A DNA stretch of 64,000 nucleotides from Fistulifera solaris (lineage: Eukaryota): assembly GCA_030295235.1 (NCBI GenBank), contig AP026162.1, positions 1,984,001 to 2,048,000 of the forward strand. Reading direction: 5' to 3'. Positions within the stretch are counted from its first letter, which is position 1; each line of letters starts with the position of its first letter. Shown piece after piece: positions 1 to 45,770 of this stretch. The notes beneath the pieces were generated by a model. It saw only the letters and a list, made by a program, of their open reading frames with translations. It did no database searches and had not been told where the DNA came from. Made by a program: the position numbers and the translations under genes.

Positions 1-218
1 GCGCCACAAAAACAATGCCACCGACAAGCACGCATCACACGCATCAGTGAAATACATGCTGATGACCGACTATGACTATCCACTTACTTCAACTACAGTA
101 ACTTAATTCTAAAAATAATCTAGCTCCAAACACATACGGAGTATTTTTTTATTTTTTAAAAAAAGTTAAGCAATACTGGTAGTCTCGTTTGTCATAGATG
201 ACTTCGTGCATCCTTGAA

Positions 219-1500
219 AATTTACTATGACACGGGGTGTTGGTTTACGCCTGCCAAGACTGGAATGTACAGTAGTCATGAACTGAACAACAAAGGAATA
301 TGTTTTGCGTCTCTCGCATCCGTCCATTGTCATTCAACTGCAATTATAATCATAATTACGCGGGTAAATAAAGCTGCAACAATGATGACTCTGAACTACT
401 TGTTAAGCGTTTCTATTATTTTCAAGTCGAAAATCCGAGGATCAATGCCTAGAATTTCCACTATGAACCGGAGTGTTGGTTTACGCCTGCCAAGACTGTG
501 TTGTACAGTAGTCACGAATCATGAACCGAACAACAAAGGATTATGTTTTGCGTCTCTCGCATCCGTCCATTGTCATTCAACTGCAAATATAATCATAATT
601 ACGGGTAAATAAAGTCGCAACAATGATGATTCTGAACTACTCACTCGTCTACGATTTTCTTTTCTTTTCACGTCTATAATCCGAGGATCGATGAATTAAT
701 TTTCCACTATGCAACGGCGTGTTGGTTTACGCCTGCCAAGACTGTGTTGTACAGTAGTCACGAATCATGAACCGAACAACAAAGGATTATGTTTTGCGTC
801 TCTCGCATCCGTCCATTGTCATTCAACTGCAAATATAATCATAATTACGGGTAAATAAAGTCGCAACAATGATGATTCTGAACTACTCACTCGTCTACGA
901 TTTTCTTTTCTTTTCACGTCTATAATCCGAGGATCGATGAATTAATTTTCCACTATGCAACGGCGTGTTGGTTTACGCCTGCCAAGACTGTGTTGTACAG
1001 TAGTCACGAATCATGAACCGAACAACAAAGGATTATGTTTTGCGTCTCTCGCATCCGTCCATTGTCATTCAACTGCAAATATAATCATAATTACGGGTAA
1101 ATAAAGTCGCAACAATGATGATTCTGAACTACTCACTCGTCTACGATTTTCTTTTCTTTTCACGTCTATAATCCGAGGATCAATGCCTCGAATTTCCACT
1201 ATGCAACGGCGTGTTGGTTTACGCCTGCCAAGACTGTGTTGTACAGTAGTCACGAATCATGAACCGAACAACAAAGGATTATGTTTTGCGTCTCTCGCAT
1301 CCGTCCATTGTCATTCAACTGCAAATATAATCATAATTACGGGTAAGTAAAGTCGCAACAATGATGATTCTGAACTACTTGTCTACGATTTTCTTTTCTT
1401 TTCACGTCTATAATCCGAGGATCGATGAATTAATTTTCCACTATGCAACGGCGTGTTGGTTTACGTCAGCCAAGACTGGATTGTACAGTAGTCATGAATC
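219..1500 (+). repeat. Tandem array 1, ~246-bp unit, 5 units plus a terminal core
   Basis: GTGTTGGTTTACG recurs at 237, 473, 719, 965, 1211 and 1453 (spacing 236, 246, 246, 246, 242). Central units are near-identical and terminal units more diverged. Confidence 0.97.
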
Positions 1501-2430
1501 ACAATTGTTTCACTTGTCGTGACGCTTGGTGACGATGCCTTTCACAAAAACAAAACGTCGCCTTTGACATAACAACAAAGCAATGTCGAGTTCATTACCA
1601 TCTTTGGCTCCTCTTACTATACTAAATGAAATCAATAAACAGGTGTTTCTGCTTCGTTTTCTCTTTAACAGCGGCTAAAGCAACAATCAACCGTCAAACA
1701 TCTTTGAAGCAGACGGAAATTCTGTATATACGTTGGAGCCTAGTTGACACAAACGCTTGCATAGATAACTGAGAAATGTGTGATGGCACGGAGAAGAAGA
1801 GAATCAGAAGCGTTGAAACCGAAGCCATGCACGGCTTATCGAAATCCGGCACCCCGGCCGGAGGCTGGCCGTCTTCTACAACTGTCCTGCATCAGAAGGT
1901 CGAGCATGTAGTTTCTCCGCGTACGCAAAAATGTGGGCATGTTATGTTTTCACCTCCACAGAGATTCAGGGTATTGGAATTGGAACCGATGGCTGATACC
2001 GTCTGCGTCATTTGTTGTTACTTTGCACTTTGCACTCACAGAAAATCTGAGGTCATTTTTCCAACGGCACTTAATTGCAGTCATGGTACGACATTTACGA
2101 TTTTTGGTGGCGGTTGAATTACTCTCTCCGCCCAAGAGTACATGCACCAACCCGCGGAGTGCACGCTCAAAAACACGGAGGGAGCAAAAAGGACGAAAAA
2201 GCCACGACGAAACGGACGCAAAGCTGTGATGACCGCAAGCTCACTGTTAAAGACAATAAAATTGGTCAATCAACAAGATCAGTCTTCCTTTCTTCTCTAG
2301 AGTAGCCTATTCTCATAGTGCGATTGCATACGCTTCGATAGGGAAACAGCGGAGCAAACCGAAGAGTTGCTTGGAGACTTTGCAATAGATCCTCTTTCTT
2401 TTCAGTTTCGAAGAATCATCGCCGTGCAAG

Positions 2431-4546
2431 ATGGATTTTTCTGTTGTGGCAGCAGTCGGCTCGTTTTTCATGTCAGAGCGTGTCTTAAAGCCTAAGGCGA
2501 CAGTCTTGGTTCTTCTGGGATGCGTACTGACGTATGACTTGACAACAAAGACTCACGACGTGGCCAGTTTGCGCGTCTACCGAGGTAAGTAGACCGTTGG
2601 CAGTATTTATTTTTATTTGAAAGACGCAAGCTAATTCAGTTCGAATACGAAAGGACCTGCACTGCTGGCCTTCACCTTGATGATGGTTGCATTCTCGTTA
2701 CGGACTTGGAGGCGAAATGGAGTTGCTTGTGATGAGTTATTATTTTTGCCGGGCACGTCCTATGCAGAATCACAAAGATCTAGTAACGAGGTGCCTTCGG
2801 CGGAAGGTGATCTAGCAGGTGGATCAGCATGGAACTTGGATTCGGCTGAGCCTATTTTGGAAATGACAAATCAGGTTACAAGTACGAGTCGCCATCGTCC
2901 CCGCTCATTGTCACGCGATAGCTCCCTTTCTTCGATTCGAGAGTTTGCAAAAGCTGGGACGACGAAGAAAACGCCCCAGAAAACGATCAAGAGCGCGTTC
3001 CACTAAGTGTTAATGAACAAGATATAAGGAGAACGGGAAGTAATGTTACAGTGGCAAGGAGTCCGGGCGGCTCCAATGAAATCGTGCACCCACCAGATGC
3101 CGTTGATCGTTTTCGCGAGAATCACCCGCGGATTACAGGTCTTGGAAGTTTCTTCTTTTTCGCAACTCGACAACTAGCACACAAAGTGCGGCGTACGCCC
3201 CCTCTGGCCCTTCGGTGGTCGGTGCTGCCCTTGATCTTTCAATGCCGATTTTGTTCAATTTTCATCTGTTCATTGAAGCTTTCAACCACTACGACAATCA
3301 CGGTGGACCCGAAACACCTGCAAAAATACTGCCTTTGATTTTCTTGAGTGTCTTGCTGGTACGGACAACCATACCACCCGGACGTCGAGGTCGGTTTTGG
3401 GGGACAATGATGTTCATTTTCATGGCGCCACTTCACGCCAGCCAATTTCGTGACTCCTATTTGGGCGACGTGGTGACATCTCTAGTGCGTCCATTGCAAG
3501 ACGTTATGTTTGCATTGGCTTATTATGTCACAGTTGTCTATGGTAGTTTGTCGGGGGACTATGGATTGTCGGACAGCGGCAGAATTCTCGGGTCGAGTCG
3601 CGTTCTACATAATGTTGTATTGCCATCGTGTTCTCTTCTGCCTCTTTGGTGGAAGTTTCTGCAAACATTGCGAGAGTGCTACGATACGGAGAAGCGCTGG
3701 CCTCATTTGGGAAACGCCTTCAAGTATTTGTCGGCAGCGTTAGTGATCATGTATGGAATGACCCATCCCGAGGAGCGATGGGGCCCGCAATGGATTTTTG
3801 CGTTCATAGTTGCGGTGCTTTATCAAATCTGGTGGGATACAATTATGGATTGGGAGCTCTTCGTAGTGGTGCCGCGACAAGAGGAGCATCTCGCAGAGAG
3901 CACCTGTTTCACGCGTATATCGTCAGTCAGACCCAACTCGTACATTCTATTGAATCTACAGCGTTACATCATTCAACCCACACGTGATATAATATGGCTT
4001 GCATTGAGCTATATACCGAGCTGGAAGCAGATTCAGCTAAGACCACAGAGACTTTACAAGGATGAGGCATTTTACTGGAGAATATTTGCCTACAACTGTG
4101 TTTTCCGAGCGGCATGGATGCTATGCTTCATTCCCTCATATCACCTCGACGGAAGAAGTTTCAGCGCTGACACCCACACATATGTCGGAGTCCTATTACC
4201 AGTCATTGAAATCTTACGACGAACATTTTGGGGCTTCTTGCTCTTGGAAGTCAAAACAATTCAAATGACTAATTCCACGGCAGCCTACAATTCTGTTGAA
4301 TGCCGAGAAGATGCAGATGTATCCGTAGACTCAGATGACAACAGCAAACACGGAGCGCGACAGTTTCTCCCTTCGTGGCTCGGTAATCAGCAGCAGCTAC
4401 ACCACGATGCTGCTACAATTTCGTCTAGGGTTAATATGAAAGATCTTTTTGATTTTGACGAAGCAACACGGCACAAGTTATTCCTTGCCGAGCTGTCGAC
4501 CTGGGCGCTTGCATTTATCGGATTGGGGCTGTGGGTAACAACGTGA
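2431..4546 (+). CDS. EXS (ERD1/XPR1/SYG1) family multi-pass membrane protein
   Basis: ORF 3215-4546 has EXS motifs (FRDSYLGDVVTS, LPLWWKFLQTLR, HLGNAFKY, WWDTIMDWEL, EILRRTFWGFL). A probable first exon runs from ATG 2431 with a GTAAGT donor at 2585. The 5' part is broken by frameshift(s) and the start is uncertain. Confidence 0.85.
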
Positions 4547-5033
4547 AGGGGAGCCTGTGGGATGCGAATTGAGATAGACGACTTGTGACAGAACAGTGCA
4601 AACGCTCGAACCAAACAAGATACTTACCCATGATTACTAACAATCATGCACGTTGTCTTTGACGAACCTAGTCAAATATCGAGCGGTTTCATTCCGTACA
4701 TTGTCGCGGTCGTCCAATTTCGAGCTCACTTGGACCACGTGTTGTGTGAAGGAGAAGTGTACTGGTATTGCTCCTGACGGAGTGTCACTTAAGGGTTGGA
4801 TTAGGCTTAGAATAAGAAGAAGATCGCCTGTTCAACGAACGGATCGAATAAGAGCGAATAAGCCGTCATAAGTCATAAGCGATTACCATCGCTTCGATAA
4901 AGGATGAGTTAGCCATCACTATTAACAACCGCTACAAATATGCTTCATTTGATCATCTTCAGCAGCATCAGGAAATTGTTAGGGCGTCGAAATTCCTTGC
5001 GAAATCGTATTCTTTCGTGCTATCCTAGTATTG

Positions 5034-5296
5034 ACTATAGGGCCAATATGTAGATTACTTATCTGCACGACTGCTTTTTAGCCATGAGTCAATATTACAC
5101 AGCACACTGCTCCGCAAACCCCTTTGCGTCGACAACCTGGTAAGCTACATTTATTATAAGATGATATCATATTCTTTAGCAGCAAGTGCAAACCTTTCTA
5201 AAGTAGTTACTGACGTCGAAGTTTTTCCGGGTCGTTGTCTTTCGTACTTACTATAAACCAAAGTGTACATTTAGCCATGACTGCACTTTAGTCACG
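5034..5296 (+). repeat. Degenerate two-core relic of the array family (cores 216 bp apart)
   Basis: ACTATAG-N28-GACTG..TTTAGCCATG at 5034 has the same spacing as the array 3 core. ACTATA..CAAAGTGTA..TGACTGCACTTTAGTCACG sits at 5250. Confidence 0.6.
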
Positions 5297-5402
5297 AGAA
5301 CGAATGACACACCAAGAACCAAGAATAAACTCGATATGCTTTGATGCTTTTGATGATGCATGGCAGTCGGCATGCTCAATGCTTTGTGTGCAATCTTTAA
5401 TC

Positions 5403-6470
5403 ATGCCCAAGATGAATCATCGCCTTCTGCATCAGAGACTAACGAAACTCGCAAAAGAATTTGTTCTCTTTCTCCTCATAGCCCTCTTCGAGCGCCCATG
5501 CGTGACATCTTTGTCTCTTTCGACGACACGACGACAAATTTTACTCCAGCCCATCGTCCTGGGGTCTTTGGCAGCACCACAAAACGCCAACGCCGCCAGA
5601 GGAGCAGCCGAACTGGATCTCGAGTTTTACGTTCGCGACTTTATCGGTGGCAACCGTCCCGAGGGGAATGTACAAGCTTCGACTCTTCCGATATTGGCAC
5701 CTCCCCGAACACTCTCGCCATTCTTTGAGAAAGTTTTGAACAAAGAATGCTCAATAGATTGCTTGGCCACGCAACAATTGATCGCACAGATCCAGAGACG
5801 AGACCAAAAACGTGAAACTGCCTTGTTAGAAAAAGAGATACACCGACAAGCGCATACAATCGGAGAAGGTGCTAGGAAGAGCTTCTATAGTAGAGCTCCG
5901 TGGGAGAGTGAAACCATGACAGATCAGTACTTTTTTGATTTGACAGCTTATTCATTTTGGAAAACTGCTGCTGTCCTGCTTCCTAATTTTGCGGATCGAG
6001 ACATGTTCGTGCGCAATTTAGGTCGCTCAATCTACCAAAGCCTCCGTGACGAACGCCTTCTCCAAACAAAATGCCGAGAGGAGAGTTTGTCGAGCTCCAT
6101 TCCCTGTGTCGTTGCGGTGCTAGACTGTTTCGTCTCCACCAACTTTTGCAAAGCCTATCGGCTGGGTGAAAAGATTGACGACGAGTATCTTTTTTTGGAC
6201 GACATTGACAACCAAGCGTGGTCGAACGGTGTCTCGGTGGATTGCTTACTGAGCATCTTTGAATCGGCCACACTGGGATCAAGCTTGCAAATTACCGGTG
6301 AGCAATCTCGATTCATTCCCGACCTCGTGGGTCCCACAATTGCCGCGGTATGGGATACACAATCGACCGTGCAATGGGAAAGTTACTTTGTGGACCCCGA
6401 GTACCGTCCCAATCCAAAGGATTACTTTCCAAACGAACAGCTATTTCAATACACTTTAGCGAAACGATGA
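5403..6470 (+). CDS. Conserved hypothetical protein, probably plastid/thylakoid-lumen targeted
   Basis: Long ORF (5304-6470, true start probably later). It has a hydrophobic signal segment, then TTRRQILL (twin-arginine), a hydrophobic stretch and an ANA|A lumenal peptidase-type site. Confidence 0.7.
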   Translation: MPKMNHRLLHQRLTKLAKEFVLFLLIALFERPCVTSLSLSTTRRQILLQPIVLGSLAAPQNANAARGAAELDLEFYVRDFIGGNRPEGNVQASTLPILAPPRTLSPFFEKVLNKECSIDCLATQQLIAQIQRRDQKRETALLEKEIHRQAHTIGEGARKSFYSRAPWESETMTDQYFFDLTAYSFWKTAAVLLPNFADRDMFVRNLGRSIYQSLRDERLLQTKCREESLSSSIPCVVAVLDCFVSTNFCKAYRLGEKIDDEYLFLDDIDNQAWSNGVSVDCLLSIFESATLGSSLQITGEQSRFIPDLVGPTIAAVWDTQSTVQWESYFVDPEYRPNPKDYFPNEQLFQYTLAKR

Positions 6471-6652
6471 TGACGACGTTGCAACAATCACATGTGCTAG
6501 TTACAACAGGATGATGTTACCACAATGCAATGACTATAATCGCTGCAAAATTCATTGTCTATAAACTTGCTATCGTCATCAATTTGTGCGTTTCTAATAA
6601 GGTCGTCTATAACTATTATTTTGCTTGAATTGTCTGATATTCAGCGCGTTCT

Positions 6653-7243
6653 TTATTTAACAGCGATGGGTGTAATCGCGGGGGCTGACATTGGTTGGTC
6701 TTTGGGTAAAGAAGCTTGACTGGTCGTCAGAGCCGGTCGTTGCAGGTTCCGACTCGCCTCACGTCCTCGATACGTTCCAGCCTTTACGACTGCTTGTACG
6801 TGATGCTCTAAATGCGTCGCATAAAACTTTCCTGCCTTGGTTCGATATCGAATGCTGGCATTGGGGGACGATCGACCAAGGTGATGACGATCAAAGAAGC
6901 CTTCCAATTGCGCGTTTCCTCCTTCCAGTAAACTCAAAATCTGCGCATGCGTCCAGGCGTCCATACCAATGGATCGCACAATCGATGTGCCGACTCCGTA
7001 CGAGCGGTGACGGCCACTGCATTGGAGACAGACGAGTGCCCCAAAGGTCACCGAAGCCCATTCCGGATGGTTGCGACCACAATCCATGCAACACTGATTG
7101 CCGGGGAGTGATCGTATGAAACGACGGCATGCGGGAGGAATGGGAGCCGCGCTGTCAGGACGGTTGTGGTGGATGCGAAAACGCTCCAATTCATTCGCCG
7201 CATCGGCGAGTAGTTGGGGGCACACGTTATTCTCGTTGGTCAT
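6653..7243 (-). CDS. ADP-ribosylation factor GTPase-activating protein (ArfGAP)
   Basis: CMDC-x16-CLQCSGRHR zinc finger, WASVTFG and VRSIGMDAW motifs. Confidence 0.95.
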   Translation of the reverse strand: MTNENNVCPQLLADAANELERFRIHHNRPDSAAPIPPACRRFIRSLPGNQCCMDCGRNHPEWASVTFGALVCLQCSGRHRSYGVGTSIVRSIGMDAWTHAQILSLLEGGNAQLEGFFDRHHLGRSSPNASIRYRTKAGKFYATHLEHHVQAVVKAGTYRGREASRNLQRPALTTSQASLPKDQPMSAPAITPIAVK

Positions 7244-7699
7244 GATAGTTGTTGTTGGCGTCGATCGTGGAGGAGAACTCGAATTGTGAGCTCAAAGGAT
7301 GGAGTCTTGTGTGGTCTCCAAGGGGTCCGGTTTTCTTAGATGAAAAACCTTTTCGAGTGTATTGTCGGTTTTATATTCGAGAGCAGTTTTCAAGAGACCA
7401 GTTTTCACCCAAATGTTAGTCGACTTTTGGTGCGAACGAAAACGTTTGGCGTTTTGACGTTTTCGCGGAGTGTCTTGGCTGGTCGGAGTTTCTTTCCCGT
7501 ATCACCTTCTTACACTTTATGAGTAGAGTGGAACAATTCCCGACTAAAAAGTTCCGCCGTTTGGGCGAGCCAAATTCTTCGTCCTTCCGTCCGTCGTCCG
7601 TCCACGTCGAAAGAATATGGGTGTAACAACGTAACTATGGTTGAGTCAGCGTGGTCTCACTTTTAGTTTTACTTCCACCAAAGCCTCCCATTAGCTCTA

Positions 7700-9466
7700 T
7701 TACATTATAATTGACGCTTGTTTGCTTTCAAAACGTGAAATAGCGTAAAGATATATTGCTTCGAATGTCTACGTGATTTCACGTAGGCCTATCGTAGGGA
7801 AACTTATCGACAGAGGGGAACCCGGATATCATTCAGTTCGAACAAACCATTCCTTCGCGATCTACCGTTTCCCTTCTGAGCGTACCAGATACGTCGTACA
7901 ACTGATCCTCGTGTTAGACAAGCATAGTAGAGAAAGTAATACTATAAAGGACAAGTTTCAAAAAAAAAATTTTTTGTTGCCGTTTGGTCCCCTTGTCAAT
8001 ATTTCACTTCTACCAACACCTCTCATGAATTTTATGACATTACAATTGACGATTGTTAGATTTCAAAACGTGAAATAGCGTAAAGACTCAATGCTTCGAA
8101 TGTCTACGTGATTTCACTTAGGCCTCGTAAGGAAATTTATCGACAGAGGGGGAACCCGGATATCATACAGTTCGAACAAACCATTCTGTGTGGCCGTTTA
8201 GGTCCCCTTGTCAATATTTCACTTCTACCAACACCTCTCATGAATTGTATTACATTAGGTCTACATGGGACGTTTGTTGGATTCAAAACGAGACGAAGAA
8301 CATAAACTCAATGCTTCGAAAGTCTACGTGATTTCACGTAGGCCTCGTGAGGAAATTTATCGACAGAGGGGGAACCCGGATATCATACAGTTCGAGCAAA
8401 CCATTTTGTGTGGCCGTTTAGGTCCCCTTGTCAATATTTCACTTCTACCAACACCTCTCATGAATTGTATTACATTAGGTCTACATGGGACGTTTGTTGG
8501 ATTCAAAACGAGACGAAGAACATAAACTCAATGCTTCGAAAGTCTACGTGATTTCACGTAGGCCTCGTGAGGAAATTTATCGACAGAGGGGGAACCCGGA
8601 TATCATACAGTTCGAGCAAACCATTTTGTGTGGCCGTTTAGGTCCCCTTGTCAATATTTCACTTCTACCAACACCTCTCATGAATTTTATGACATTACAA
8701 TTGACGATTGTTAGATTTCAAAACGTGAAATAGCGTCAAGACTCAATGCTTCGAATGTCTACGTGATTTCACTTAGGCCTCGTAAGGAAATTTATCGACA
8801 GAGGGGGAACCCGGATATCATACAGTTCGAGCAAACCATTTTGTGTGGCCGTTTTGGTCCCCTTGTCAATATTTCACTTCTACCAACACCTCTCATGAAT
8901 TGTATTACATTAGGTCTACATGGGACGTTTGTTGGATTCAAAACGAGACGAAGAACATAAACTCAATGCTTCGAAAGTCTACGTGATTTCACGTAGGCCT
9001 CGTAGGGAAATTTATCGACAGAGGGGGAACCCGGATATCATACAGTTCGAACAAACCATTTTGTGTCGCCGTTTAGGTCCCCTTGTCAATATTTCACTTC
9101 TACCAACACCTCTCATGAATTTTATGACATTACAATTGACGATTGTTAGATTTCAAAACGTGAAATAGCGTAAAGACTCAATGCTTCGAATGTCTACGTG
9201 ATTTCACTTAGGCCTCGTAAGGAAATTTATCGACAGAGGGGGAACCCGGATTTCATACAGTTCGAACAAACCATTCTGTGTGGCCGTTTAGGTCCCCTTG
9301 TCAATATTTCACTTCTACCAACACCTCTCATGAATTTTATGACATTACAATTGACGATTGTTAGATTTCAAAACGTGAAATAGCGTAAAGACTCAATGCT
9401 TCGAAAGTCTACGTGATATCACGTAGGCGTCGTAGGGAAATTTATCGACAGAGGGGGACCCCGGAT
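7700..9466 (+). repeat. Tandem array 2, 215/220-bp units of two variants, 8 cores
   Basis: Core TCGAAWGTCTACGTGATTTCACKTAGG at 7761, 8096, 8316, 8536, 8751, 8971, 9186 and 9401, containing the palindrome CTACGTGA-TT-TCACGTAG. Confidence 0.97.
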
Positions 9467-9551
9467 TGCGGCCGCACACGATCGAGAATAATTTTGTTGC
9501 ATTTCAAACGAACTTGCAATATAAGCAGGAAGACGAACGGAATATGTCAGA

Positions 9552-10697: not shown

Positions 10698-10810
10698 TGA
10701 CAGAGGACGTTCATCCCTTACTTCTACAGTACTGTAAAAATCAAGATTCTTTTCCACAGCGTTTACGCCCGTTCGTCTAATATTTACAAATTCTAGCTTG
10801 GAAACAATGG

Positions 10811-18802: not shown

Positions 18803-18874
18803 AGTGTCACAGAAAAACACTAGGATAGTAATGATGATTTACTACGGTGTGTCATATTGACTTTACTATTTATG

Positions 18875-19447: not shown

Positions 19448-19751
19448 TCTTTGCTTCGACTTTGGAATAATATTGAATCGAATAATTCTTTTTCGATTTA
19501 GAGACTTTACTTTGTTGTATTCGTTTGTTGGCTGCTTCGTTCATTCTCATGCGCTCATTTTGTCGCAATTATTTCTGGAACGGCCACAAAACGGCTGTCT
19601 GGCGAAAAATGCCGATTCCAGAAATTCTGGAACGTGAACAAAATCTCCGCTCAACTCAAAATTTTTTTTTTTTAACCCATTCAAGTATCTCTTGAACTTG
19701 AACGACCGCAAAGAGTCGTCTGTCTGGCGGAAAATTCCGATTCAAATAACT

Positions 19752-20018
19752 CATGACTGAAATTTAGTCATGAAAAACGTCGTCTACAAGTTGCATCATA
19801 GTAAACCATGGTCGAGAAGCTCTGGGATGTTTTTTCAAATATTGAGGTCGGCATCGACCGTGTATTGAAACGTGAATCGTTTAAGAGTATGTGCAGCATT
19901 AAATTGATGTCAAAAGAGTGGTGGGGAACAAAATGTGGACTTTTACGTACGAACATACATGTTTGTGTCGTGACTGAAATCCAGTCACAAAGAACTTACA
20001 CTTTGAACTATAGTGCAA
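19752..20018 (-). repeat. Degenerate two-core relic of the array family, inverted (cores 216 bp apart)
   Basis: Palindromes TCATGACTGAAATTTAGTCATGA (19751) and GTGACTGAAATCCAGTCAC (19970) are each followed by ..ATAGT. Their reverse complement matches CACTATAG...GACTGAATTTCAGTCACG of array 3. Confidence 0.65.
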
Positions 20019-20337
20019 CTTGAGGTGCAGCATTACGCGGTTCGCACCTTTTTTTGACCTTATTTTTTTGCGTCGCATTTCTGTTATCGGCTGCCTGTTG
20101 TTGTCTTGGTTTCATCTTGAAAGCGATAAACTGTCCTTAGTTTGTGTTGTTGGTACAGGGTAGGATTGTTGAGGTATAGCGGCTTGAAAATTGGAAACAA
20201 TCGTGATCAAGGAGCTATTGTCACATCACGCCAACACCCAACATCACATCATCATCATCCTACGACATTTGTGCACAAACACCCGAAATTTTGTGCACCA
20301 AAGTTTCTTGTATTTTTGAAATCTCTTTACCAGCCCC

Positions 20338-21229: not shown

Positions 21230-22030
21230 TAGAATAACTCAACCTTGACCATTTGCATCGCGTGAAAGTGGAAAGGTGAATCTGGAACAAAGCATTTTTT
21301 GATCGAAGGTAGGATCGGCGAGATATTGAACGACCATATGTAAGGACCAGATTGCAAACGCAGCTAGAATGTGATAGCAGCTCTATCTAGGTTAGATCTA
21401 CTCCAAGAAATAGTCGGTATTTTTGAAGGGACTTTAGTTCCAGTTCAAATTCAAAGCAACCGTCATTTTTTTAATAATTTGATAGCGGGTCGTCATTTCC
21501 CATGTATAAGGATATTTCTTGCGCTCGATAATACCTAGCTTGGTAAGTCAGACTTGTTAATTGATTTCATTTCGGAGTACAACAAATCTATCTGCTATCT
21601 GTAGCAGCATTTGCAAATTCAATCGCGGCCGAGTACAATAATCACCAAATCAAGGATCCAAGAGCCAGCCTATTGCCTAACCACAAATTGCCCCGCTAGT
21701 TTAATAATCAAATCTTCTTTTCATTGAAATACAAGAGTCTAGCTTTCGTCGGCACTTGCAATGCACGCCTTAACAGTTTACGTCGACATCCTTGCGGGAA
21801 TGTTGTCTTCCGCATTTACTATGGCCCAAAGTGTTGCCCGTTTTCGCCCCTACTGCTTTTCAGCATTACTCATTGCTTTTCAGTCATGAATCATCATCAC
21901 GACCTTATTAATTACCAGTATTCATTCACACTGTTTGACTTTTCATCACAATTTTTTATTCGCTTAACTTTGGATGCAAAACACGGCGTAATAGTTGTTT
22001 TCAACAATTTCGAGTTATTTATATTATAAT

Positions 22031-22470: not shown

Positions 22471-22511
22471 ATCGACCATTATTTATTTTTTTAGCCATTA
22501 CTTCGTTTCTT

Positions 22512-30500: not shown

Positions 30501-30807
30501 GTTCATGGAACGAGTTTGGATCAAGTTGAAGGGTTCTGATGCTGTTGCAGTTATTAAAGACATCAATCCGGACAAGTCTGCACTTGTCGAGTTAGAAGAC
30601 AAAAGTACTCGAACAATTAGATCAAGTGAGGCCATGATGGTTCCGCCAGTTGAACACGACACTGTATTAGTGACGGGTGGCAACGAAATCGGTTTGGAAG
30701 GGTCGCTTGTGTGTGTCGATGGAACTGATGCTATTCTCAAAATCATGAACGATGAGTTTAAGATCATCGACTTCGTCCATCTGGTAAAAATATCCGCAGA
30801 CAATTAA
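27592..30807 (+). CDS. SPT5: Transcription elongation factor SPT5
   Basis: Acidic N-terminus with FFELEAE, LVPSVKDPSFWMVSC NGN domain, multiple KOW motifs and GGATP repeats. Single-base indels fall in T runs at 27856-27862 and 29729-29732. Confidence 0.96.
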
Positions 30808-30851
30808 CAGACGAAAAAGATTTATGAACTATAAGTTTGCCTCAATTCTGG

Positions 30852-32768: not shown

Positions 32769-33185
32769 AATGGCAAAGCTCCTCTATTGCGTATTTGTAA
32801 GAAAAAATGGTCCGATAGTTCTCTTGGTGCTTTAGTGGTTATTTATTCATTCACATCTAAAAGCAATGCAAAAGTCGAAAAACCGAAGCACGGCTTCAAT
32901 ATTTTGACGTGTTCAAGTCAGTCACGAGCTTTGAGTACCGTAAGGGGGAAGAATCTCTTGGAAAGAGTATGGGTGAAGTTTCCGACTACTCCGTATGTTG
33001 TTCCGACTAATTGTTCATTTTGGCAATTGTAGCATTCATTATTCATTTTAAAACCTTTGGTAACAAACCAAAAGGAATGTTTCATCGGTCTCAATCGTTG
33101 TTGCTATTCTTTTGGATGAAAATTGGTAGCCGCGGTTTTGGAATCAGTTCAAGACTTCGTCAACAGCGGCATCCAGTTTGAAAAA

Positions 33186-33335
33186 ACGCCCATATTTTCT
33201 GAAAACGTGAAAGCATCACACCCCCATTTTTTCTGGAGACGTGAAAACACCACACTCCCATTTTTTCTGGGTACGTGGAAGCCACGCCCATTTTTTGGAC
33301 ACCCATATTTTCCGGAGAAGTGAAAATACAACATC
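33186..33335 (+). repeat. Short degenerate tandem repeat (~30-35 bp unit CCCAT(A/T)TTTTCTG...ACGTGAAA..CA)
   Basis: Five CCCAT(A/T)TTTT starts within ~150 bp, three followed by ACGTG. Confidence 0.8.
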
Positions 33336-33632
33336 AAGGGGTATGCACCACGCACCACGCTCCCAGACCTTTGGCCCAGACTTTCTGTGGACTTGAGGAC
33401 AACAAATATCCAGATTTTCTGTAAAATTTTTTTGCCTTCTTTTGTCACTGGCGTCCGTCCGTCATCGCGTCGGTCTCGTTGATCGAGCACTTCCGCGGTT
33501 TGCTCCTTTCCCTCCACTCAAAAAGATTCATTCTTTGGCTTTTTTGTTGTCGTTGTGGTGCGCGTCTTTCTTTTGCATCATATAGACTACTGTTTCATTT
33601 TTTGTTATCAGTCACAATTTTCTTTTGCGAAA

Positions 33633-36600: not shown

Positions 36601-37126
36601 GTAGAAGCTTCCTGTGGTATTGAAGTTGACGAAGATGAGTTTGTCGATCAATTTAACCCCGGCATGTAAGTAATCGGTGCACATGCCTCGATCTTGTGCG
36701 ATGATTATTGTTTTCTGTCGTTCCTTTCGACTTGTTGGAGCCGCGGTTTTTTACTGGAGCTCGCAAGGAGAAGCCGGGGGCGATCCTATTTTTATGAGGA
36801 ATATAAAGCGACCATACTCTCTGAGCACTTGAAAGGTTTGCTATACATTTGTTTCGACGGTGCTTCTGTGCTCACTTTGTTGCTTTAATCACAGGATGGA
36901 AGCCGTATTCGCGTGGTGCAAGGGGGTGAAATTCGTTGAAGTGCAAAAGCTTACCGAGTCCTTTGAGGGTACCACGATCAGAACCCTTCGTCGGGTGGAA
37001 GAACTTGTTCGACAAATCGCTGTTGCGGCAAAATCGATAGGTAACTATGAGCTACAGTCCAAGTTTGAAAAGGGAAGTGAACTCGTCAAGCGCGATATCG
37101 TATTTTGCAGTTCATTGTACCTTTAA
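33633..37126 (+). CDS. MTR4: Exosome RNA helicase MTR4 (SKIV2L2)
   Basis: [59 protein letters not shown] and [12 protein letters not shown] motifs. Indels fall in homopolymers at ~34458, ~34647 and ~35807. Intron 36666-36894. Confidence 0.97.
36696..36828 (+). ncRNA. Probable intronic box C/D snoRNA guiding 18S rRNA 2'-O-methylation
   Basis: Lies in the unusually long MTR4 intron. GTGC/GCAC terminal stem, C-like GCGATGA (36698), C'-like ATGAGGA (36794) and D box CTGA (36821). GCGACCATACTC lies one base upstream of the D box and is complementary to the conserved SSU rRNA sequence GAGTATGGTCGC. Confidence 0.75.
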
Positions 37127-37251
37127 TTTTAGCTGTTTACATGATAAGCCTTTCTTTGTACTTCTAAGACGTAGCTTTACAATCAATCCTTTTTGAACTG
37201 TGACTCTTCGTTTTCGCACTGCTTTGCAAGTTTCCAGACAAAACTGACAAA

Positions 37252-39379
37252 CTACCAGTCCTTCTGCATTTCTATTGTTTTTTGCAATCGCCCTGGTCGT
37301 TTAAGAGCGGCATCAATCAATGAGGAATTGTGTGTGATTCCTATAACTGCAATTCCACCTTCATGTTGACTGTTGCCGTGAACACCGTCCATTTCTGTAA
37401 GGAGCGTTGCGAGTACACGATCAAGCGTTCCTTCCGTAGTCGGATCATTTCCGCGAACTGCCGCAATGTTTTCGATACCTTCAAGAAGAAGGATACACGG
37501 CGACGCTTTCCTCGCGCTGTCAAAGAGTCTCTGAACTGCTCGTTCAGATCCACCGACTTCCTTATGAATCAATGATGTACAACTCACATCAAGTATCTTG
37601 ATCGATGGCAAAGAGAAACAGCATACTGACCGCAGTCCATTGCGATGCGTGTTTTGCCACTGCCCGATTCTCCGGTTAACAGCACCCCGCCAACAACAAC
37701 TCTCGATGTGGAAACACTAGATCCGACAAGTAACCTTTTCAGTTCCTTAGCTCGACACATTGGTATGACAATGGACTCCACCAAAACTTTCCAAGCTGAT
37801 TTAGCAGCATCCCCTTTCATAGAGAACAAAAAGCGCTCATTTGTATTGATGGCAAAATCTCGAGCAGCCAAAACACGCATGTCAACAGAGTCGGCGAGAA
37901 CTCCAGTCTGAAGCGACAACGGAGCAAAGGTATTCAATCTGTTTTTCAAGGAATGGAAAAATAGTCGAGCAGAAATGTCCCTCATTCCCTGGTTCGACAA
38001 ATCTTCGAGGGCCTGTCGGCAACACAATACGAGCTCAGCGTAGTTCTTTCCTAAGGTGGCCTCCACCAAATCGTCCAGAATTTGTTCTCGATTCTCATCC
38101 CGCATTGAGACATCATTCTCAAAAATCGGCACAAGAGAAGTCAATAGCTGTCTGCGCACTTCTTCATTGGGAGGTTGCAGATGATGAACGCAATCAAACC
38201 TGTGGTAGAGGACATCGGTTTTTCTCGTGGACGTGCAGAGAACAAAAATGTTGCTTCCTCGCTCGGGACGCTCTCTCATCGCATCAAGGACGCTAAGAAA
38301 AGTTGCCGTGGATCGCCTTAATAACGCACTGGTGTTTTCCATGGATGATGCCGACTGTTTCGTAGACACTTCCAACAGGATATGATCCAGGCCATCCAAT
38401 ACGATCACCATGGGCTTTGTCGAGACGCGAGCAGCGTGAAATACTGCAACAATAGTGTCTTCCGCTTCTCCCACCGAGCTTCCTAGAATATCCAGTGGCA
38501 AACGAGGTTGTATTACTGCAGTCATTGTGAGCTTCTCGTCGTTGCAAGAGGGCGTGATGCACGAGAAGAATTACCTTGACAGGACGCTTCTTTCACCAAA
38601 GACGAAACTTGATCACAAAGATGAGTTTTACCGGATCCCTCTGGACCCACCACCAGAAGTGTAGTAAACGACGCAGTAACTGTTTCCTTCGCCTCTTGCA
38701 TGAAGCAACGTACGGCATCGAGAACTCCGTCGGCAGACGTTACTGCTGGACTCAACCTCGCGTTACCTCCATCCGAACGGATTGTGCTTTCCGTGACCTT
38801 TGTTTCGCTTCCTTTAAACAATTGCTGCGTTACTGCAGAGTTCTGGCGGTGACAAATGGCCAAAACTTCCTGAAAATCGACTCGATGCAACATACTATAT
38901 CTGTGGAGACATTGGATTGTCGACTCGATACAGTGGTCGAAGGACTGGTCGTTTGGATCGGTACTACAATATATTCGATCCAAAGCCGCTGTCATGTTTC
39001 GCAAAGCCGTAAGCTCCAGTGCATGCTGCGTTCGGTAACTGGAACACAAGGATTCTTTAATGTAAGCAAAAGCAGTCGGGACCGCCATCTTGGACAATTC
39101 GGTAAATTCCACATAATCGGCTGTCAATTTTGTTTCGTATTGTATCATCTGTTCCCGACATTTCGCCATGAGTTCTTCCAACTCTAACATTTCTTGTGCT
39201 GCAAATGAATTCACATCCCACCAATTGTGACGCGAATAACGAATCCGCAGTGCTTCCAGTAAATCAATAAGGGTCATCCGCGTCGCATCCTCGTAAAATC
39301 CGCACAGATCGAGGAGGGCCAAAATTGTATCATTTGTCTCATTGTGGCTTTCTGCCTTGCTGGCTTTTCGCTTGCCCAT
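37252..39379 (-). CDS. Divergent double-domain AAA+ ATPase (CDC48/PEX/SPATA5-like)
   Basis: Walker A GPEGSGKT and GESGSGKT, VGGSERAVQRLFDSAR, RVLATLLTEMDG and IDAALKRPGRL. Split over three ORFs by a probable intron (~38520-38575) and a frameshift (~37610). Confidence 0.82.
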
Positions 39380-39510
39380 AATGGCGCCTCTTTGAACAAT
39401 GGTCAATATAATGCTAAACAACACTCCTCCGTTTTACGTCTTTGAAACTTTGTTTTGAAAAGCTTTCGGATCGAATGAATGAAGAAAAGATCTCCGTTTG
39501 ACGTTATAAT

Positions 39511-40454
39511 CACTATAGGCTCAATGTGTTGGTTTACGGAGACCGCGACTGAATTTCAGTCACGCTCCAATTACGGAAAACGAATAGAACGGTGACGAGG
39601 AGGGCCACAAATGACAGTGCAAAGTGTTGAATCAATATTTTGATACTTTTATGAGTGTAAAGGTATATTACGGTCTTCATTTGAAACGCAGCATTTCGCC
39701 TTGAAAAGCTTCCGGTGCGTCGACCGCTAATTTCACTATAGGCTCAATGTGTTGGTTTACGGAGACCGCGACTGAATTTCAGTCACGCTCCAATTACGGA
39801 AAACGAATAGAACGGTGACGAGGAGGGCCACAAATGACAGTGCAAAGTGTTGAATCAATATTTTGATACTTTTATGAGTGTAAGCTATATTACGGTCTTC
39901 ATTTGAAACGCAGCATTTCGCCTTGAAAAGCTTCCGGTGCGTCGACCGCTAATTTCACTATAGGCTCAATGTGTTGGTTTACGGAGACCGCGACTGAATT
40001 TCAGTCACGTTCCAATTACGGAAAACGAATAGAACGGTGACGAGGAGGGCCACAAATGACAGTGCAAAGTGTTGAATCAATATTTTGATACTTTTATGAG
40101 TGTAAGCTATATTACGGTCTTCATTTGAAACGCAGCATTTCGCCTTGAAAAGCTTCCGGTGCGTCGACCGCTAATTTCACTATAGGCTCAATGTATTGGT
40201 TTACGGAGACCGCGACTGAATTTCACTCACGCTCCAATTACGGAAAACGAATAGAACGGTGACGAGGAGGGCCACAAATGACAGTGCAAAGTGTTGAATC
40301 AATATTTTGATACTTTTATGAGTGTAAGCTGTATTACGGTCTTCATTTGAAACGCAGAATTTCGCCTTGAAAAGCTTCCGGTGCGTCGACCGCTAATTTC
40401 ACTATAGGCTCAATGTGTTGGTTTACGGAGACCGCGACTGAATTTCACTCACGC
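39511..40454 (+). repeat. Tandem array 3, 222-bp unit, 4 units plus a terminal core
   Basis: CACTATAGGCTCAATGTRTTGGTTTACGGAGACCGCGACTGAATTTCA at 39511, 39734, 39956, 40178 and 40400, with the palindrome GACTGAA-T-TTCAGTC. Confidence 0.97.
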
Positions 40455-40714
40455 ACCAAGATGCATAAATTATACACTTTACTACATCGCCGTACCGGCA
40501 ATGATGTATTCTAGAGTATAAAGTAGGAATGAGTACCGGGGTACAAAGCCGTTAAACTACTTAAGAGTACAGTGTACCCTGCCTTACGCGTCTGCTTGCG
40601 GCGACAATTTTTTGCGATGTGCGACTGTGCGATCAAATGCGTTTGACCATGACCTTTTGTTGAAAAGCGGTCGATCTTTGCCATTCCTACCAGGTATTTC
40701 TTTTCTCTAGCACG

Positions 40715-43239
40715 ATGGCCACTCCACAACCCCCACCACCGCAACAACAACCGGGAGGTCCTCCCGGAGATAGCTACTTCACCGAGTCACGCAAGGGTGA
40801 AATCAATGAGTTGCGCAACTTGTTGCGGGGCTTTGCGACCGAGCGTGATCCGATGCGCAAGCGTGATATTATCAAGAAAGTGCTGGCTTATATGACGTTA
40901 GGTATCGATGTGTCGCGTTTGTTTACGGAAATGATGCTGGCGATTGAAACTAGGTACGTGTAAGAAAGATAAAGAGGGACACGGTCTCGAAGCGTCCGTC
41001 ATCAAGAATAAGGACATGACTCTCACTTCCACACTTCCGTCATTGACAGGGATTTGGTCATTAAGAAAATGATTTATCTGTATTTGACGAATTACGCTCG
41101 AACGCACCCCGAATTGGCACAGATGTGTACCAACACACTCACGAAAGATTGTGCCAATGATGATCCGATGGTACGGGGACTCGCGTTGCGCGCCTTGTGC
41201 GGTCTCAATTTACCCCAGATGGTCGAATACATTAGTGAACCCTTGCGCCGTTCTCTATCGGATGGTCATGCTTACGTTCGGAAAACAGCCGTCATGGGAG
41301 TGCTGAAGCTGTATCATTTGGATCGTGAAACGTTCGAATCCTGCGGATTTGTCGATATTCTCTACGATATGTTACGGGATCCGGATGCCAGCGTGGTCGT
41401 CAATTGTGTCATTTGTCTCAATGAAGTTATGCAAAAGTCTCCGGCGGGAGGAATGACGATCAATAGGGCCATTATGTTGCATTTGCTCAATCGCATTCAT
41501 GAATTCAACGAATTTGCTCAAGTACAAATTCTCGAATTGGTGCCTCGTTACATTCCTGCCAATGAAGAAGAAGGTTATCAAATTATGAACCTGTTGGATC
41601 CGGTACTATCGACTTCGGGAAGTGGTGCGGTTATGGCGACCGTTCGTGCTTTTTTAAGCTTGGCCGATCAAGTGGTCGGTGACGATGAACATAAACTGCA
41701 AATGAAACGACAAATTGTGGAGCGAGTCAAGCCGTCTCTGGTCACCCAAATTTCATCCGGTTCATCCGAGATGATGTATACGCTTCTTAAGCATGTCGAA
41801 ACGTTGGCCGAGGCGTGCCCAGGTGTCTTTGATGATGAGTATCGTCAGTTTTACGTGCGATACAATGAACCGACGCACGTCAAGTACCTGAAATTGGCGG
41901 TTTTACCTCGTCTAGCGAATCCGGATACAGCACCCGATATTGTGTCCGAGTTGGCAGAATGCGTGCACGACTCGAATGTGAAAATGAGCCGTCTGGCGGT
42001 TCGGAGCATGGCGCGGATCGCCTGTGGAGGAACGGGCGGTCCAGGTGCCGCAGAAGCCATTGCTCGCCGATTGCTGGAGCTTTTGGATCTGAATGTAGAG
42101 CATGTTAGTAGTGAAGCGGCTTCCGCTTTGACGCTTATTGTCCGCAAGCACCCCACCTTGAAACCAATGGTAGCACCACCGCTCACGCGGAGTCTCAAAT
42201 ACATTACAGAACCCAGCGGCCGTGCTTCAGTTCTGTATCTGTTGGGTGATTGTGGCGACATTGTTCCTGCCGCGCCGTATGCATTAGAGAAATTGATTGA
42301 CTCGTACGATAGATTGGAAGATGCGGGGGTAAAGCTGGCGCTTTTGACAACCACGATGAAACTCTTCTTACAGCAGAATCGAGCACCTGAAGTACAACGC
42401 ATGCTGGGTAGACTTTTGGCGAAAGCATGCGACGATGTATCTTCCCAGGATTTACACGATCGGGCGCTACAATACTACCGACTTCTTCGGAACACGGATC
42501 TTCACACTCTACAAACGACCATACCCCAGCTGAAAGCCAACTATATACCCGAGCACGTTCCTTTTGCCGAAGAAGATGACAGCGCCCGTCAAAAACTACT
42601 TATGGAAGAATTCAACACATTATCAGTTTTGTACGGGAAACCATCTGTTCACTTCATTGCTCCCGAATACCAGGTGAAGTATGTTAAGATGCCGGCAGAA
42701 CATCCACTCAGTCCTGGGGCTCCTCCAGCACAGCAACTTGAAACGTCAGTACCTCACCAAGAACAGCCGATCGGCGCTAGCGCACCTGCTTATGCGGATG
42801 TTGATCTGCTGGGCTTTGGAGATGGTCCATCTCCATCACATACGCCCAGCGTAACACAATCGATTTCGTCTTTGTCCCTGAATCCGTCGGTAAATTTAAG
42901 TGGTGACGATTATCAAAGTCGATGGGAGGGAATATCTGACAATGATGCCCACGTCTCTGCCATTCCGATGGGAATGAACAGCATTACTACGGATTCGGTC
43001 GAAGCTGCCCTAGCTAGTGTTCATGTGCGGACGATTGCCAGCGGAGAACTGCCGACGGAATTCAAGTTCTTTTGTATGCACAGGAGTCGACTTCAGGAAT
43101 GCTGTTCTTGATCCAGGGCAATATCGAGAAACAATCCGCAGAGCCGCTCATGATTGCTACTATCAAAGTTACGGGAGACATGGCGAGTAGTGAATTGATC
43201 AACCAGTTGATAAGCACTATGACGACAGCTTTGCAGTAA
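40715..43239 (+). CDS. AP4B1: AP-4 complex beta subunit (beta-adaptin)
   Basis: KKVLAYMTLGIDVS, DLVIKKMIYLYL, DPMVRGLALRALCGL, YVRKTAVMGVLKLYH, DLHDRALQYYRLL and EEFNTLSVLYGKP motifs. Intron ~40954-41049, and an indel in a T run at ~43070. Confidence 0.88.
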
Positions 43240-43299
43240 ATGCGGTGCAGTTAACAGCAAAAGTTATAAACATTTTGGCTTTATCCTAAAATTCGTTAC

Positions 43300-45094
43300 T
43301 CAAGCTCGCTCCATGTTCTGCAAAATCGCAGACGCTATGTACCTACCCCAAAAATCATATCTGGAAGAGCGTCGGAAAGAAAGATGTTTTAGAGCTTTCA
43401 CATTATCGTCACCAAGCCGGCGAATGTATTTACTTACCCATGGTCACTAGGGTGAATTCCGTCGCACGATACCATGGAAGAGCCAAAACTGGCGGTGTTT
43501 CCGTTGAAGTAATTTGATACTTCTACTTCGTCGTCCACAAGCTCGTAGAAGACCAACTCATCGGCTTCTTCTGCCCCCAAGAACCAATTGTGATAGTGTT
43601 TCCGCATCAAAAGCTCGACCGCACTTTTGCGTCCGGCATCAGAAGTCTCGTTCAATTGCAATAACACCACACTTTTGTTGAAAAGATCCCATAGTGGTCC
43701 ATGACCTAATTCTATCTCTGCTACCTCCTCTTTTGAAGGGGCATCTACGAAAAGCACCAAGTCAGGATACATTTTTGACATGAGATACTTGACGTGATCC
43801 ATTCTGCGGAAAACAAAGCCAAACAACCAGCCCAATGGAGCGATCTGATATGGTTCGATGGGTATTATTGGAAGGGCTGGGAATACCACCAAAGGATAGG
43901 GCGAATGTTCACCTAACCGTTTTCTTAGGACATGTCGAATTTGTTCATTCTGCGTTTGACATTCCTCTATATCTAAAATCGGTGGGAGAGGGATTTTAAT
44001 GCCCATTTTTTGTTGTAGAGCGTTCACTATACGAATCAAGGTACCTTTGAAGCCTTTCAACTGATCGTCCGGATCCGACTCGATAGCTTTTCTGATTTCT
44101 CTGGCTCGCTCGGCTGACATCATAAATGGCAGAAACGCATCTTTGATATCATTCAAACCTGTAAGAACCACAGCAATATCATACTGACCCACTACATGCG
44201 GGTCTAGAGTTGTACGGCGTATCAATGATCGTCTCTTCTGCAACTCTTCTGCGGGTGGTATCGGTTGCTGCATACGACGAAATCTCTGTAAGACACGTTG
44301 CAAATCTTGCTTTATTCTTCGCTTGATCCATCGACGATACCGACGACCGTTCGCCCCATCCTCTTTATCGGATTCATCTTCGTCTCTACTAAATTCCTCG
44401 AGCCACTCCTCTGCACTTTTCTGCGCAGCCTCCAAACGCTTCCGAGCGCGCTCTCGCGATTCGCCCTGCCATTGCGCTAAACGGTTTAGCACCGGAGGAA
44501 AACCTCTTTCTCTCTCTTCATCAGCAGTACCCGACGAATGACTCCCAAGTTTTCGAATGTCCTCGATCAATAAGGCGGAAGGAAGACCGGGAGTCCCTAT
44601 GCACGTCCAGTAAACAGCTCTCCCATTCATCGCCTGAGACAAGACCTGAGCGATCGAATCCGGTAATATTGGCGAATGAGATTCTCGAATCCCTACTCCA
44701 GCCGCTAGCGAATCTCCAATAACAAGTAATCGTAACGGCTTTTCATGTCGGTGATCCGGAGCTTTTTTGAATGCTTTATTATTGAACGACAGATTCGACA
44801 GGTCTCTCTTACCGGAACTGATATTGTCGCTATGATCCGGATCATACGGATTGGAACTTACAACCACGAGTCCGCTACACGGAACATCCGGTCTGGGTGC
44901 ATCTCCATGATTTCTGCGGTATTCTTGGAATAGTTGAGAACTTACTTGAAAGAACGAGAAAAGAGGATGCGAGATTCGTTGCACTTCTTACCGTACAAAA
45001 GCAACGCGCCCTGCAGAATGGAAATGGTTGGAATGGAGATCGCCATACCCAAAGACCAGCTCTTCAAGGCTTCCCGAAAAGCAGCATGGTTCAT
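43300..45094 (-). CDS. SGNH/GDSL hydrolase family protein
   Basis: LLVIGDSLAAGVG (block I), GLND (block III) and DGIHP (block V). First exon MNHAAF..LQGALLLY ends at a GTAAG donor (~44991). The last exon is YDFWGRYIA. Confidence 0.85.
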
Positions 45095-45254
45095 TGTTTG
45101 ATGCTTCTAAAGTTGTGAAGACGCATGGGTATATTCTAAAGAAAGGTAAAGCGTTTGTTGTGTTGTTGATGGTCGCGGTTTTTTTCCTCTTCGAAAAACG
45201 GTGGGTTTCTGGACTCGTGAATGGAGACCCGGGAAGACCTCAGCTAAGATTCAA

Positions 45255-45770
45255 CATCCGGGTACCCCTTCAGAGATAAATTTCCTACGGCGGCTACGTC
45301 AAACTTGCGTAGACATTCGAACCGGTGCATCTTTCATCCTTGTTGCGAAATGATTTCAAATTGTTGCCGACCGTCGTTGGCTATCATAAATTTTACATGT
45401 TGGTGAAAGTAAAAGAGACGTTGTTGCAACATTGATCCCCAAAATGGGCACCACAAACAATTACCGCACATCCGGGCTTGCCTCTGTCGACTCCGTGTGT
45501 CGATAAATTTCCTTACGGGGGCCTACGTACAACTTACGTTGATTTTCGAAGCGTTGCGTCTGTTATCTTTACATTGCGTATTTCTTGCCAATTATTGCTG
45601 ATCATCGATTGTGGACATGCGTCATCATGTTGGGGAATGAAAACGAGACATTGTTGCAGAATTGAATTGGGAAAGGTTGTGAAAGAATTTCATTATTTCC
45701 GGGTCCCCCTGCAGAGATAAATTTCCTACGGCGGCTACGTCAAACTTGCGTAGACTTTCAAAGCATAGTG
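45255..45770 (-). repeat. Tandem array 4: three diverged inverted copies of the array 2 core
   Basis: The reverse complement TTCGAATGTCTACGCAAGTTTGACGTAGCCGCCGTAGGAAATTTATCTCTGAAGGGGTACCCGGATG aligns to the array 2 core. Copies end at ~45321, 45550 and 45762 (spacing 229, 212). Confidence 0.85.

Follow-up and report, generated by a model that had tools for sequence, protein, structure and literature searches.

Satellite-like repeats dispersed as short arrays have been described in a few animal genomes, and the comparisons made here draw on parts of the cited reports. In Meloidogyne, short dispersed arrays of divergent monomers (45-84 bp) share a conserved, GC-rich dyad box of 19 bp that is bound by CenH3, and mosaic arrays occur (PMC8097292). 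The Cast1-Cast9 satellites of Tribolium castaneum form arrays in gene-rich DNA with bursts, interchromosomal exchange and irregular junctions, and their spread has been proposed to involve extrachromosomal circular DNA (eccDNA) or transposition (PMC11610590). Helentron-associated HINE elements of the Pacific oyster are short satellite-like arrays with a palindrome (PMC7492417), while Replitrons carry terminal direct repeats and a hairpin and are reported, in the parts of the source drawn on, as not detected in diatoms (PMC10288648). The present analysis concerns a 64,000-nucleotide stretch of the diatom Fistulifera solaris (contig AP026162.1 of assembly GCA_030295235.1, positions 1,984,001 to 2,048,000 of the forward strand; hereafter the window), in which short arrays and relics of repeat units of about 215 bp, each carrying a conserved multi-box core with a dyad, stand between genes. 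General regulatory factor or barrier sites that position nucleosomes, such as those of Abf1 and Reb1 in yeast, measure 7-14 bp and are orientation-free, located in promoter DNA, conserved in place and nucleosome-adjacent.

The cores constitute a dispersed satellite-like repeat with a conserved box, having the short dispersed arrays, the divergent monomers and the common box of such repeats. Unlike the Meloidogyne box, they measure 70-80 bp, consist of four spaced boxes in units of about 215 bp and lie on the promoter side of genes. Unlike the Tribolium satellites, for which a core conserved in place is not described in the parts of the report drawn on (PMC11610590), most loci here are old cores, single or paired, retained in orthologous positions, and three unrelated families have arrived at one and the same period. 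One type II subfamily with a right-hand module may recall HINE, but the HINE left module with its subterminal inverted repeat (subTIR) and microsatellite is lacking here, a palindrome is present in every unit and no clean insertion at TT is found (compare PMC7492417). In Replitron-1 the end repeat measures 6 bp, the left end is fixed and a Rep gene is present (PMC10288648), whereas the repeated part here spans 60-80 bp and its ends are not fixed. The likeness to the Abf1 and Reb1 sites lies in the freedom of orientation, the promoter-side position and the conservation in place; the difference is that here the site and its spacer are copied as a unit and that the core is far longer. A literature search found no description of the cores, including in the available parts of the Fistulifera solaris genome preprint (10.1101/2021.11.10.468027), which refers to unexplained repeated elements between tandem genes that may overlap these families. 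Two properties place the cores above an ordinary repeat: at orthologous sites the type I boxes are constrained, and three unrelated families have a period in common. The reading that we favour, at an even balance of belief and doubt, is that they are modules in promoter-side DNA that would be bound by host protein, stand one nucleosome apart and be multiplied by homology-driven repair.

The window lies on contig C1 of a eukaryotic genome of 51.7 Mb, and a homoeologous region is present on contig C2. Profile hidden Markov models (HMMs) seeded from the window recognise in it 16 cores of type I and 11 of type II. The type I core of about 80 bp comprises an upstream GGATCG box, ACTAT, AAGTGT and a GACTG-N5-CAGTC dyad at fixed spacing, the dyad spacer being constant in 101/111 cases and the ACTAT-AGTGT distance being 12-13 in 106/111. 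The type II core of about 72 bp comprises ATCCGGG, GATAAATTT, a CTACGT-N6-ACGTAG dyad and TTCGAAG. Every core carries a palindrome, as had been noted, in imperfect form. The original prediction had placed all of them in one dispersed family, a view that has to be abandoned: across the two types the cores of different arrays align no better than shuffled controls, as judged from the profile alignment (p=0.77 forward, 0.41 reverse, against shuffled columns) and from cross-family core pairs (p>=0.15 in 8/8), and none of the 114 type I matches overlaps any of the 117 type II matches. Within a family the alignments are significant, both between arrays 1 and 3 (p=0.002) and between arrays 2 and 4 (p=0.001), with p<0.03 in five of six type I pairs. 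The unit bodies of the six window loci are largely unrelated, as had been supposed, no pair among 15 reaching p<0.02 and three falling at p 0.02-0.03, uncorrected.

The arrays and relics of all six loci recognised earlier were located again with slightly adjusted coordinates. Array 1, array 3 and the two relic pairs are of type I, as is a single core. Array 1 (212..1501, plus strand) is young and holds six cores in a 246-bp unit (224-1501 and 5.3 copies by Tandem Repeats Finder), and its homoeologous site is without a core. Array 3 (39455..40459, plus strand) holds five cores in a 222-bp unit with 98% matches (39510-40459 by Tandem Repeats Finder); at its site in C2 no core is detectable by HMM, and a possible decayed minus-strand core is seen by eye. 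The cores of the first relic pair (5027..5298, plus strand) are at 5027 and 5214, lie 216 bp apart in a tandem rather than a divergent gap, and are both retained in the homoeolog; those of the second (19749..20026, minus strand), at 19749 and 19963 in the divergent gap between UPF0172 and DSPc genes, correspond to an orthologous pair accompanied by a third core. A spacing of 216 bp had been given for both pairs; it stands for the first, and for the second the distance is 212 bp by anchor or 217 by hairpin. The single core (21791..21893, plus strand), which had escaped earlier notice, has an orthologous core in the homoeolog. Arrays 2 and 4 are type II. Array 2 (7758..9466, minus strand), in the divergent gap between ArfGap and kinase genes, has eight cores, seven of them in the 215/220-bp array (7969-9466 by Tandem Repeats Finder, period 220, dimer 435) and one detached beside it at 7758-7829, against one decayed core in the homoeolog. 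Array 4 (45254..45766, plus strand), in the divergent gap between GDSL-like and proteasome genes, has three cores with diverged bodies, the divergence being too great for Tandem Repeats Finder, and the homoeolog holds two decayed cores; the spacing of the three cores is 227/214 in place of 229/212. Pfam labels at the four divergent gene pairs (ArfGap/Pkinase, UPF0172/DSPc, AAA/Adaptin_N and GDSL-like/Proteasome) agree with the gene pairs recognised before, whereas array 1 and the relic pair at 5027..5298 lie in tandem gaps.

The two families are linked physically, in that a type II row can pass, without loss of phase, into a type I core. In 7/23 type II clusters the last type II core is followed downstream within 380 bp by a core of type I on either strand, two of these seven having been chosen for their type I match. 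A right-hand module that runs from the type II body into the type I core is common to six type II loci; it is complete in loci L039 and L043, the former being a duplicate of a locus on C34, and missing from arrays 2 and 4. A third palindrome family, type III, is unrelated to types I and II and has a TCCAGA-N3-TCTGGA dyad, subunits of 34 and about 52 bp and higher-order units of 206-217 bp. In the window it is represented by a tract of 34-bp period at 33184..33281, to which no strand is assigned, and by a site at about 19613-19632; arrays of 206-217 bp occur elsewhere, and a further site lies on C1 at about 1926.8-1928.2 kb (L055:2816-4167). Strict type III sites were found in eight gaps, none of them convergent.

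Scanning the genome yields many further copies, as was anticipated. The exact four-box type I pattern matches 339 times and its reversed control not at all, and DNA searches of the genome returned 125 and 597 candidates for the two cores. In 464 kb the type I HMM (E<=0.05) gives 60 matches, comprising 49 in 264 kb around the window and 9 and 2 in two independent 100-kb samples, while all 16 type II matches come from the surroundings of the window. Controls made by shuffling and by reversal had no match in one scan, and 0 and 1 in 928 kb in another. By extrapolation the genome would hold roughly 3,000-6,500 type I copies. Two type II subtypes often alternate, forming a/b dimers of 425-431 bp that are present on many contigs. 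A metagenome search with the four-box pattern found no match, in a collection from which close relatives may be absent, so that a restriction to the lineage does not follow; 18 loci matched the dyad-only pattern, of which 13 form a single sequence cluster and none has a convincing full core.

The relation of the cores to genes was examined in the form of occupied intergenic gaps, delimited by a rough codon-model gene caller that missed the ArfGap gene, so that at least one gap counted as tandem is really divergent. Cores occupy 31/200 gaps in 464 kb (divergent 15/66, tandem 16/95, convergent 0/39), which corresponds to one locus in about 15 kb. The preference for head-to-head promoters that had been proposed is not borne out, since divergent gaps make up 15/31 of those occupied, where gap length predicts 12.8 (p=0.24) and promoter count 17.5; the per-gap Fisher test is borderline (p 0.02-0.06 at three gene-calling thresholds), and the enrichment is gone under the length and promoter-count nulls. 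What holds instead is the avoidance of convergent gaps (0/31 against 4.4 expected by gap length, p=0.005). In tandem gaps seven cores point toward the gene start and eight away (n=15, with the ArfGap gap excluded and the gene calls rough). The cores are, therefore, promoter-side and orientation-free. No type I core of the 464 kb and no type II core of the window lies inside a called gene.

Orientation also bears on the idea that type I is a TATA-type promoter of a short non-coding RNA starting at the dyad, or that the core is a structured RNA. A TATA-like box about 30 bp before the dyad fits the former, and the variation of one dyad pair between A-T and G-C (35 vs 25 of 95 rows) fits the latter, but this covariation may be a single subfamily event. 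The random orientation to the nearest gene start speaks against a small-RNA promoter and equally removes an oriented core promoter of the adjacent gene; a promoter of the small nuclear RNA (snRNA) type was set aside with the two U6 genes, neither of which has an upstream type I match at E<=10. For a structured RNA, folding z-scores of -0.1 to -1.7 and an Rfam scan of the window that returned a tRNA only, with nothing for the cores, are likewise unfavourable, and both forms of the idea appear very improbable. Resemblances to a T7 promoter, CACTA ends, long terminal repeat (LTR) ends and heat-shock elements were dropped, as the relevant bases vary among copies. Two sequencing runs, with contigs mainly on genes and one across a spliced intron, gave no contig on arrays 3 and 4 and are uninformative about expression.

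The distribution of the cores could also be that of replication origins or dispersed centromere-type sites. They are orientation-free and non-coding, with several boxes at fixed spacing and the density of loci given above, and the centromeric repeats of Meloidogyne likewise combine divergent monomers with a common dyad box (PMC8097292). However, the origin recognition complex (ORC) of Phaeodactylum is described, in the parts of the report drawn on, as acting without a shared motif (10.1101/2024.07.07.602421), and the centromere and autonomously replicating sequence (ARS) motifs given for Fistulifera solaris in the parts of the preprint drawn on (10.1101/2021.11.10.468027) are unlike the cores by eye, in an unscored comparison, save for a short ATTCAGTCG stretch. 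We consider this explanation improbable.

The second copy of the region on C2, in which the adaptin is 99% identical, makes it possible to assess the age of the cores. In 77 mapped gaps, cores are present in both subgenomes in 12, with the same family and strand, in C1 only in two (arrays 1 and 3), in C2 only in one and in neither in 62 (Fisher 3e-11); three further occupied C1 gaps were unmappable and excluded from the 77, with C2 cores in two of them and none seen for the third. Most cores are thus old, 12/15 occupied gaps agreeing in family and strand. Constraint was measured on type I only. In 16 orthologous type I pairs the boxes are identical at 368/407 positions (0.904) and the spacers at 296/396 (0.747), as compared with 8691/10906 (0.797) at four-fold sites of 51 genes, and the boxes differ from this neutral rate with p=4e-9. 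A neutral simulation passed through the same HMM filter gives 0.82 for the boxes, with 141/384 pairs retained, while core-free gaps match in 0.87 of aligned columns, a figure that includes untranslated regions (UTRs), introns and missed exons. In HMM-guided alignments, paralogous boxes agree at 0.79 against 0.90 for orthologous ones and paralogous spacers at 0.38 against 0.61, so conversion from random paralogs cannot give the value of 0.90. As orthologs exceed paralogs in boxes and spacers alike, the old type I cores were inherited in place with their boxes constrained, and the excess over the neutral rate points to selection in place. In this sense the earlier remark that the repeat does not look like ordinary satellite DNA is well founded.

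Palindromic TAC...GTA insertions of 7-9 bp, often stacked, occur at many intergenic sites (e.g. window 40691-40699 and the C2 homoeolog cores), interrupt cores and flanks and differ between homoeologs. An 85-bp element that resembles a miniature inverted-repeat transposable element (MITE), with inverted ends of about 25 bp and a central CTACGTAG, is polymorphic between homoeologs and occurs at no fewer than six places in the 464-kb sample (e.g. L057:4583-4669), as well as within a type II core in L042.

The period is a further property common to the families. Median spacing falls at 195-250 bp in 26/31 type I and in 19/19 type II clusters, and if cores of 80 bp (type I) and 72 bp (type II) are assumed, the two families agree in a median body of 141 bp (40 type I and 24 type II distinct bodies). 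Among arrays without a type I or II core, 5/7 also have periods of 206-217 bp, most of them being type III; a 362-bp-period array at L027:3386-4541 lies between type I cores and itself has neither core. A nucleosome comprises 147 bp of DNA, and from its length the 141-bp median body would fit a nucleosome-sized module.

Rows appear to grow locally. Within an old chain of three cores, C2 carries a private 219-bp duplication, 97% identical, whose breakpoints lie just upstream of two cores, and core numbers in homoeologous gaps differ (8 vs 1 for array 2, 3 vs 2 for array 4). Array ends fall within a core in 27/44 type I and 16/24 type II cases as compared with 40% by chance (p=0.004 and 0.007), at positions scattered around the dyad over about 100 bp or more, with no fixed terminus or crossover point. 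The earlier statement that arrays begin and end on a core is therefore right as a tendency and wrong if a defined end is meant, while the suggestion that a conserved cis-acting core at a conserved period seeds local amplification agrees with the core-to-core duplication and with the preference of ends for cores.

Rows also reach new sites. Four young type I arrays were compared with their homoeologous sites, namely array 1, array 3, a relative of array 1 at C1:2124.4-2126 kb and an array of ten cores on C11; in every case the site lacks a core and is taken up by 150-750 bp of other DNA. The array 3 body recurs with 69-83% identity at 10 other loci examined, which had been picked by core similarity. 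At C1:988-992 kb, a 4.0-kb piece (L039:2347-6368) has been copied from the C34 locus (L141) at 89-94% identity and is flanked by 112-bp direct repeats; it comprises 14 type II cores together with one of type I and a RING-finger gene truncated at its 3' end. The C35 homoeolog of the C34 locus has two type I cores and none of type II. A clean TT insertion without target duplication was not seen at the five sites, four of which show replaced DNA and one the 112-bp direct repeat, in comparisons where the homoeolog is about 20% diverged and old junctions may be blurred. The best matches of two young subfamilies lie on odd-numbered contigs in 41/42 and 33/40 cases (the remainder of the latter on C30 and C34), and since homoeologous contigs pair as C1/C2, C3/C4 and C11/C12, this suggests spread within one parental genome.

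A rival account sees in the rows selfish elements, themselves non-autonomous, that depend for movement on an unrecognised enzyme, either of the rolling-circle (HUH) kind or a recombinase, that reads the boxes and the hairpin; active subfamilies would overwrite old copies and so produce an apparent conservation. The travel of bodies, both in array 3 and in the type II a/b dimers, the seeming confinement of young subfamilies to one subgenome, the preference of array ends for cores, the better pairing of the dyad on one strand, the single carriage of a downstream gene fragment and the sharp halt of paralog similarity at the type II 5' edge (loose ends 45252-45256) are all in keeping with it. Against it, the ends are scattered, and no left module (subTIR, inverted repeat and microsatellite) is common among 60 flanks of 30 arrays, the flank matches found being instead a MITE, partial units or local duplication. 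New sites show replacement or the direct duplication rather than clean insertion, and orthologous type I cores keep their own spacers and so were not overwritten. As for the rows being MITEs, no left-right flank repeat exists at arrays 1, 3 or L023. Genome searches with PF14214 (Helitron_like_N), PF05970 (PIF1) and PF00589 (Phage_integrase) gave no match, each a weak negative: the control for the first was also silent, that for the second recovered 3/14 and host Pif1 was not found either, and the 14/14 controls recovered for the third were all prokaryotic. The rolling-circle and recombinase candidates put forward in the original prediction thus find no support, and we regard a selfish element as unlikely, while the junctions would fit templated break repair or the reinsertion of a circle better than a transposase. 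A separate element that we read as HINE-like also occurs in the genome and inserts itself into these arrays. Inside a type I body on C1 at about 2124.95-2125.27 kb (L069) lies an insertion of 330 bp that includes a CA microsatellite, and pieces related to it are present in L137, in L039 and in the C2 region; the likeness to HINE is by eye and without a database match.

Repair alone might suffice if the dyads were break-prone or recombination-promoting sites of no benefit to the host, the rows being made and spread by repair in the manner of minisatellite cores. All three unrelated families are centred on imperfect dyads, 3/5 checked new-arrival sites lie in or beside type III dyad tracts, and the junctions resemble repair. 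A site that breaks should, however, erode, yet the type I boxes exceed the neutral rate, and the boxes outside the dyad, their fixed spacing and the shared period are left unexplained. This account seems quite unlikely to us.

The favoured reading, of modules bound by host protein, can be set out in steps. The core would be a lineage-specific multi-box DNA module in promoter-side intergenic DNA bound by one or more putative host proteins, and the unit a bound site plus one nucleosome, neighbouring cores probably being separated by a body of about 141 bp that a nucleosome would occupy. Rows would grow by unequal exchange or break repair between adjacent cores, and occasionally templated repair or a small circle may carry a copy of a row into a different promoter gap, some local DNA being replaced, so that copying would depend on repair and not on a dedicated enzyme. 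A number of observations weigh against this reading. Dyad mismatches favour one strand (123 A.C vs 28 G.T), as a single-stranded hairpin would also give. The spacers fall slightly under the four-fold rate (p=0.017), so that four-fold sites may not reflect neutral change exactly. In C2 the type II cores have decayed and contain insertions, and the C1 type II units at one locus are nearer to paralogs (83-87% over full length) than to the ortholog (about 77%, with many gaps), which suggests that type II may have been converted or refreshed in one subgenome rather than selected. The figure of 141 bp depends on the chosen core edges, 10.4-bp AA/TT/TA periodicity was not seen in the bodies and a literature search found no nucleosome repeat length for a diatom. 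Lastly, since most promoter gaps have no detectable core and both new arrays and core losses are tolerated, any role would not be essential at each site.

A wider form of the proposal, which we regard as doubtful, is that promoter chromatin is partly built from portable cassettes of a bound site plus one nucleosome, which would make a mobile and interchangeable organising module, neither a transposon nor a plain satellite. On this proposal three unrelated families would have converged on a 210-bp unit and would take each other's place in a promoter gap; their spread would be confined to the parental genome in which they lie, at times with an adjacent gene taken along. Two gaps would be instances of such an exchange, one with a type II row against type I in the homoeolog (C34/C35) and one with a type I row against type III (array 1).

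Other features of the window include a tRNA gene at 62051-62121, a set of coding repeats (27/54, 72/144 and 18/36 bp) at 47349-49912, within long open reading frames that overlap, which the homoeolog has too, and a segment of about 6.7 kb (about 53650-60310) that is unmatched in the homoeologous C2 region.

Few sequence rules are known for the promoters of diatoms, and a conserved multi-box element, probably present in thousands of copies, offers a concrete target in the search for a binding protein. The young subfamilies apparently differ between the parental genomes, which makes the arrays a testable candidate for homoeolog expression bias in the hybrid. If it is true that chromatin sets the shared period, nucleosome geometry can fix the repeat length in unrelated families.

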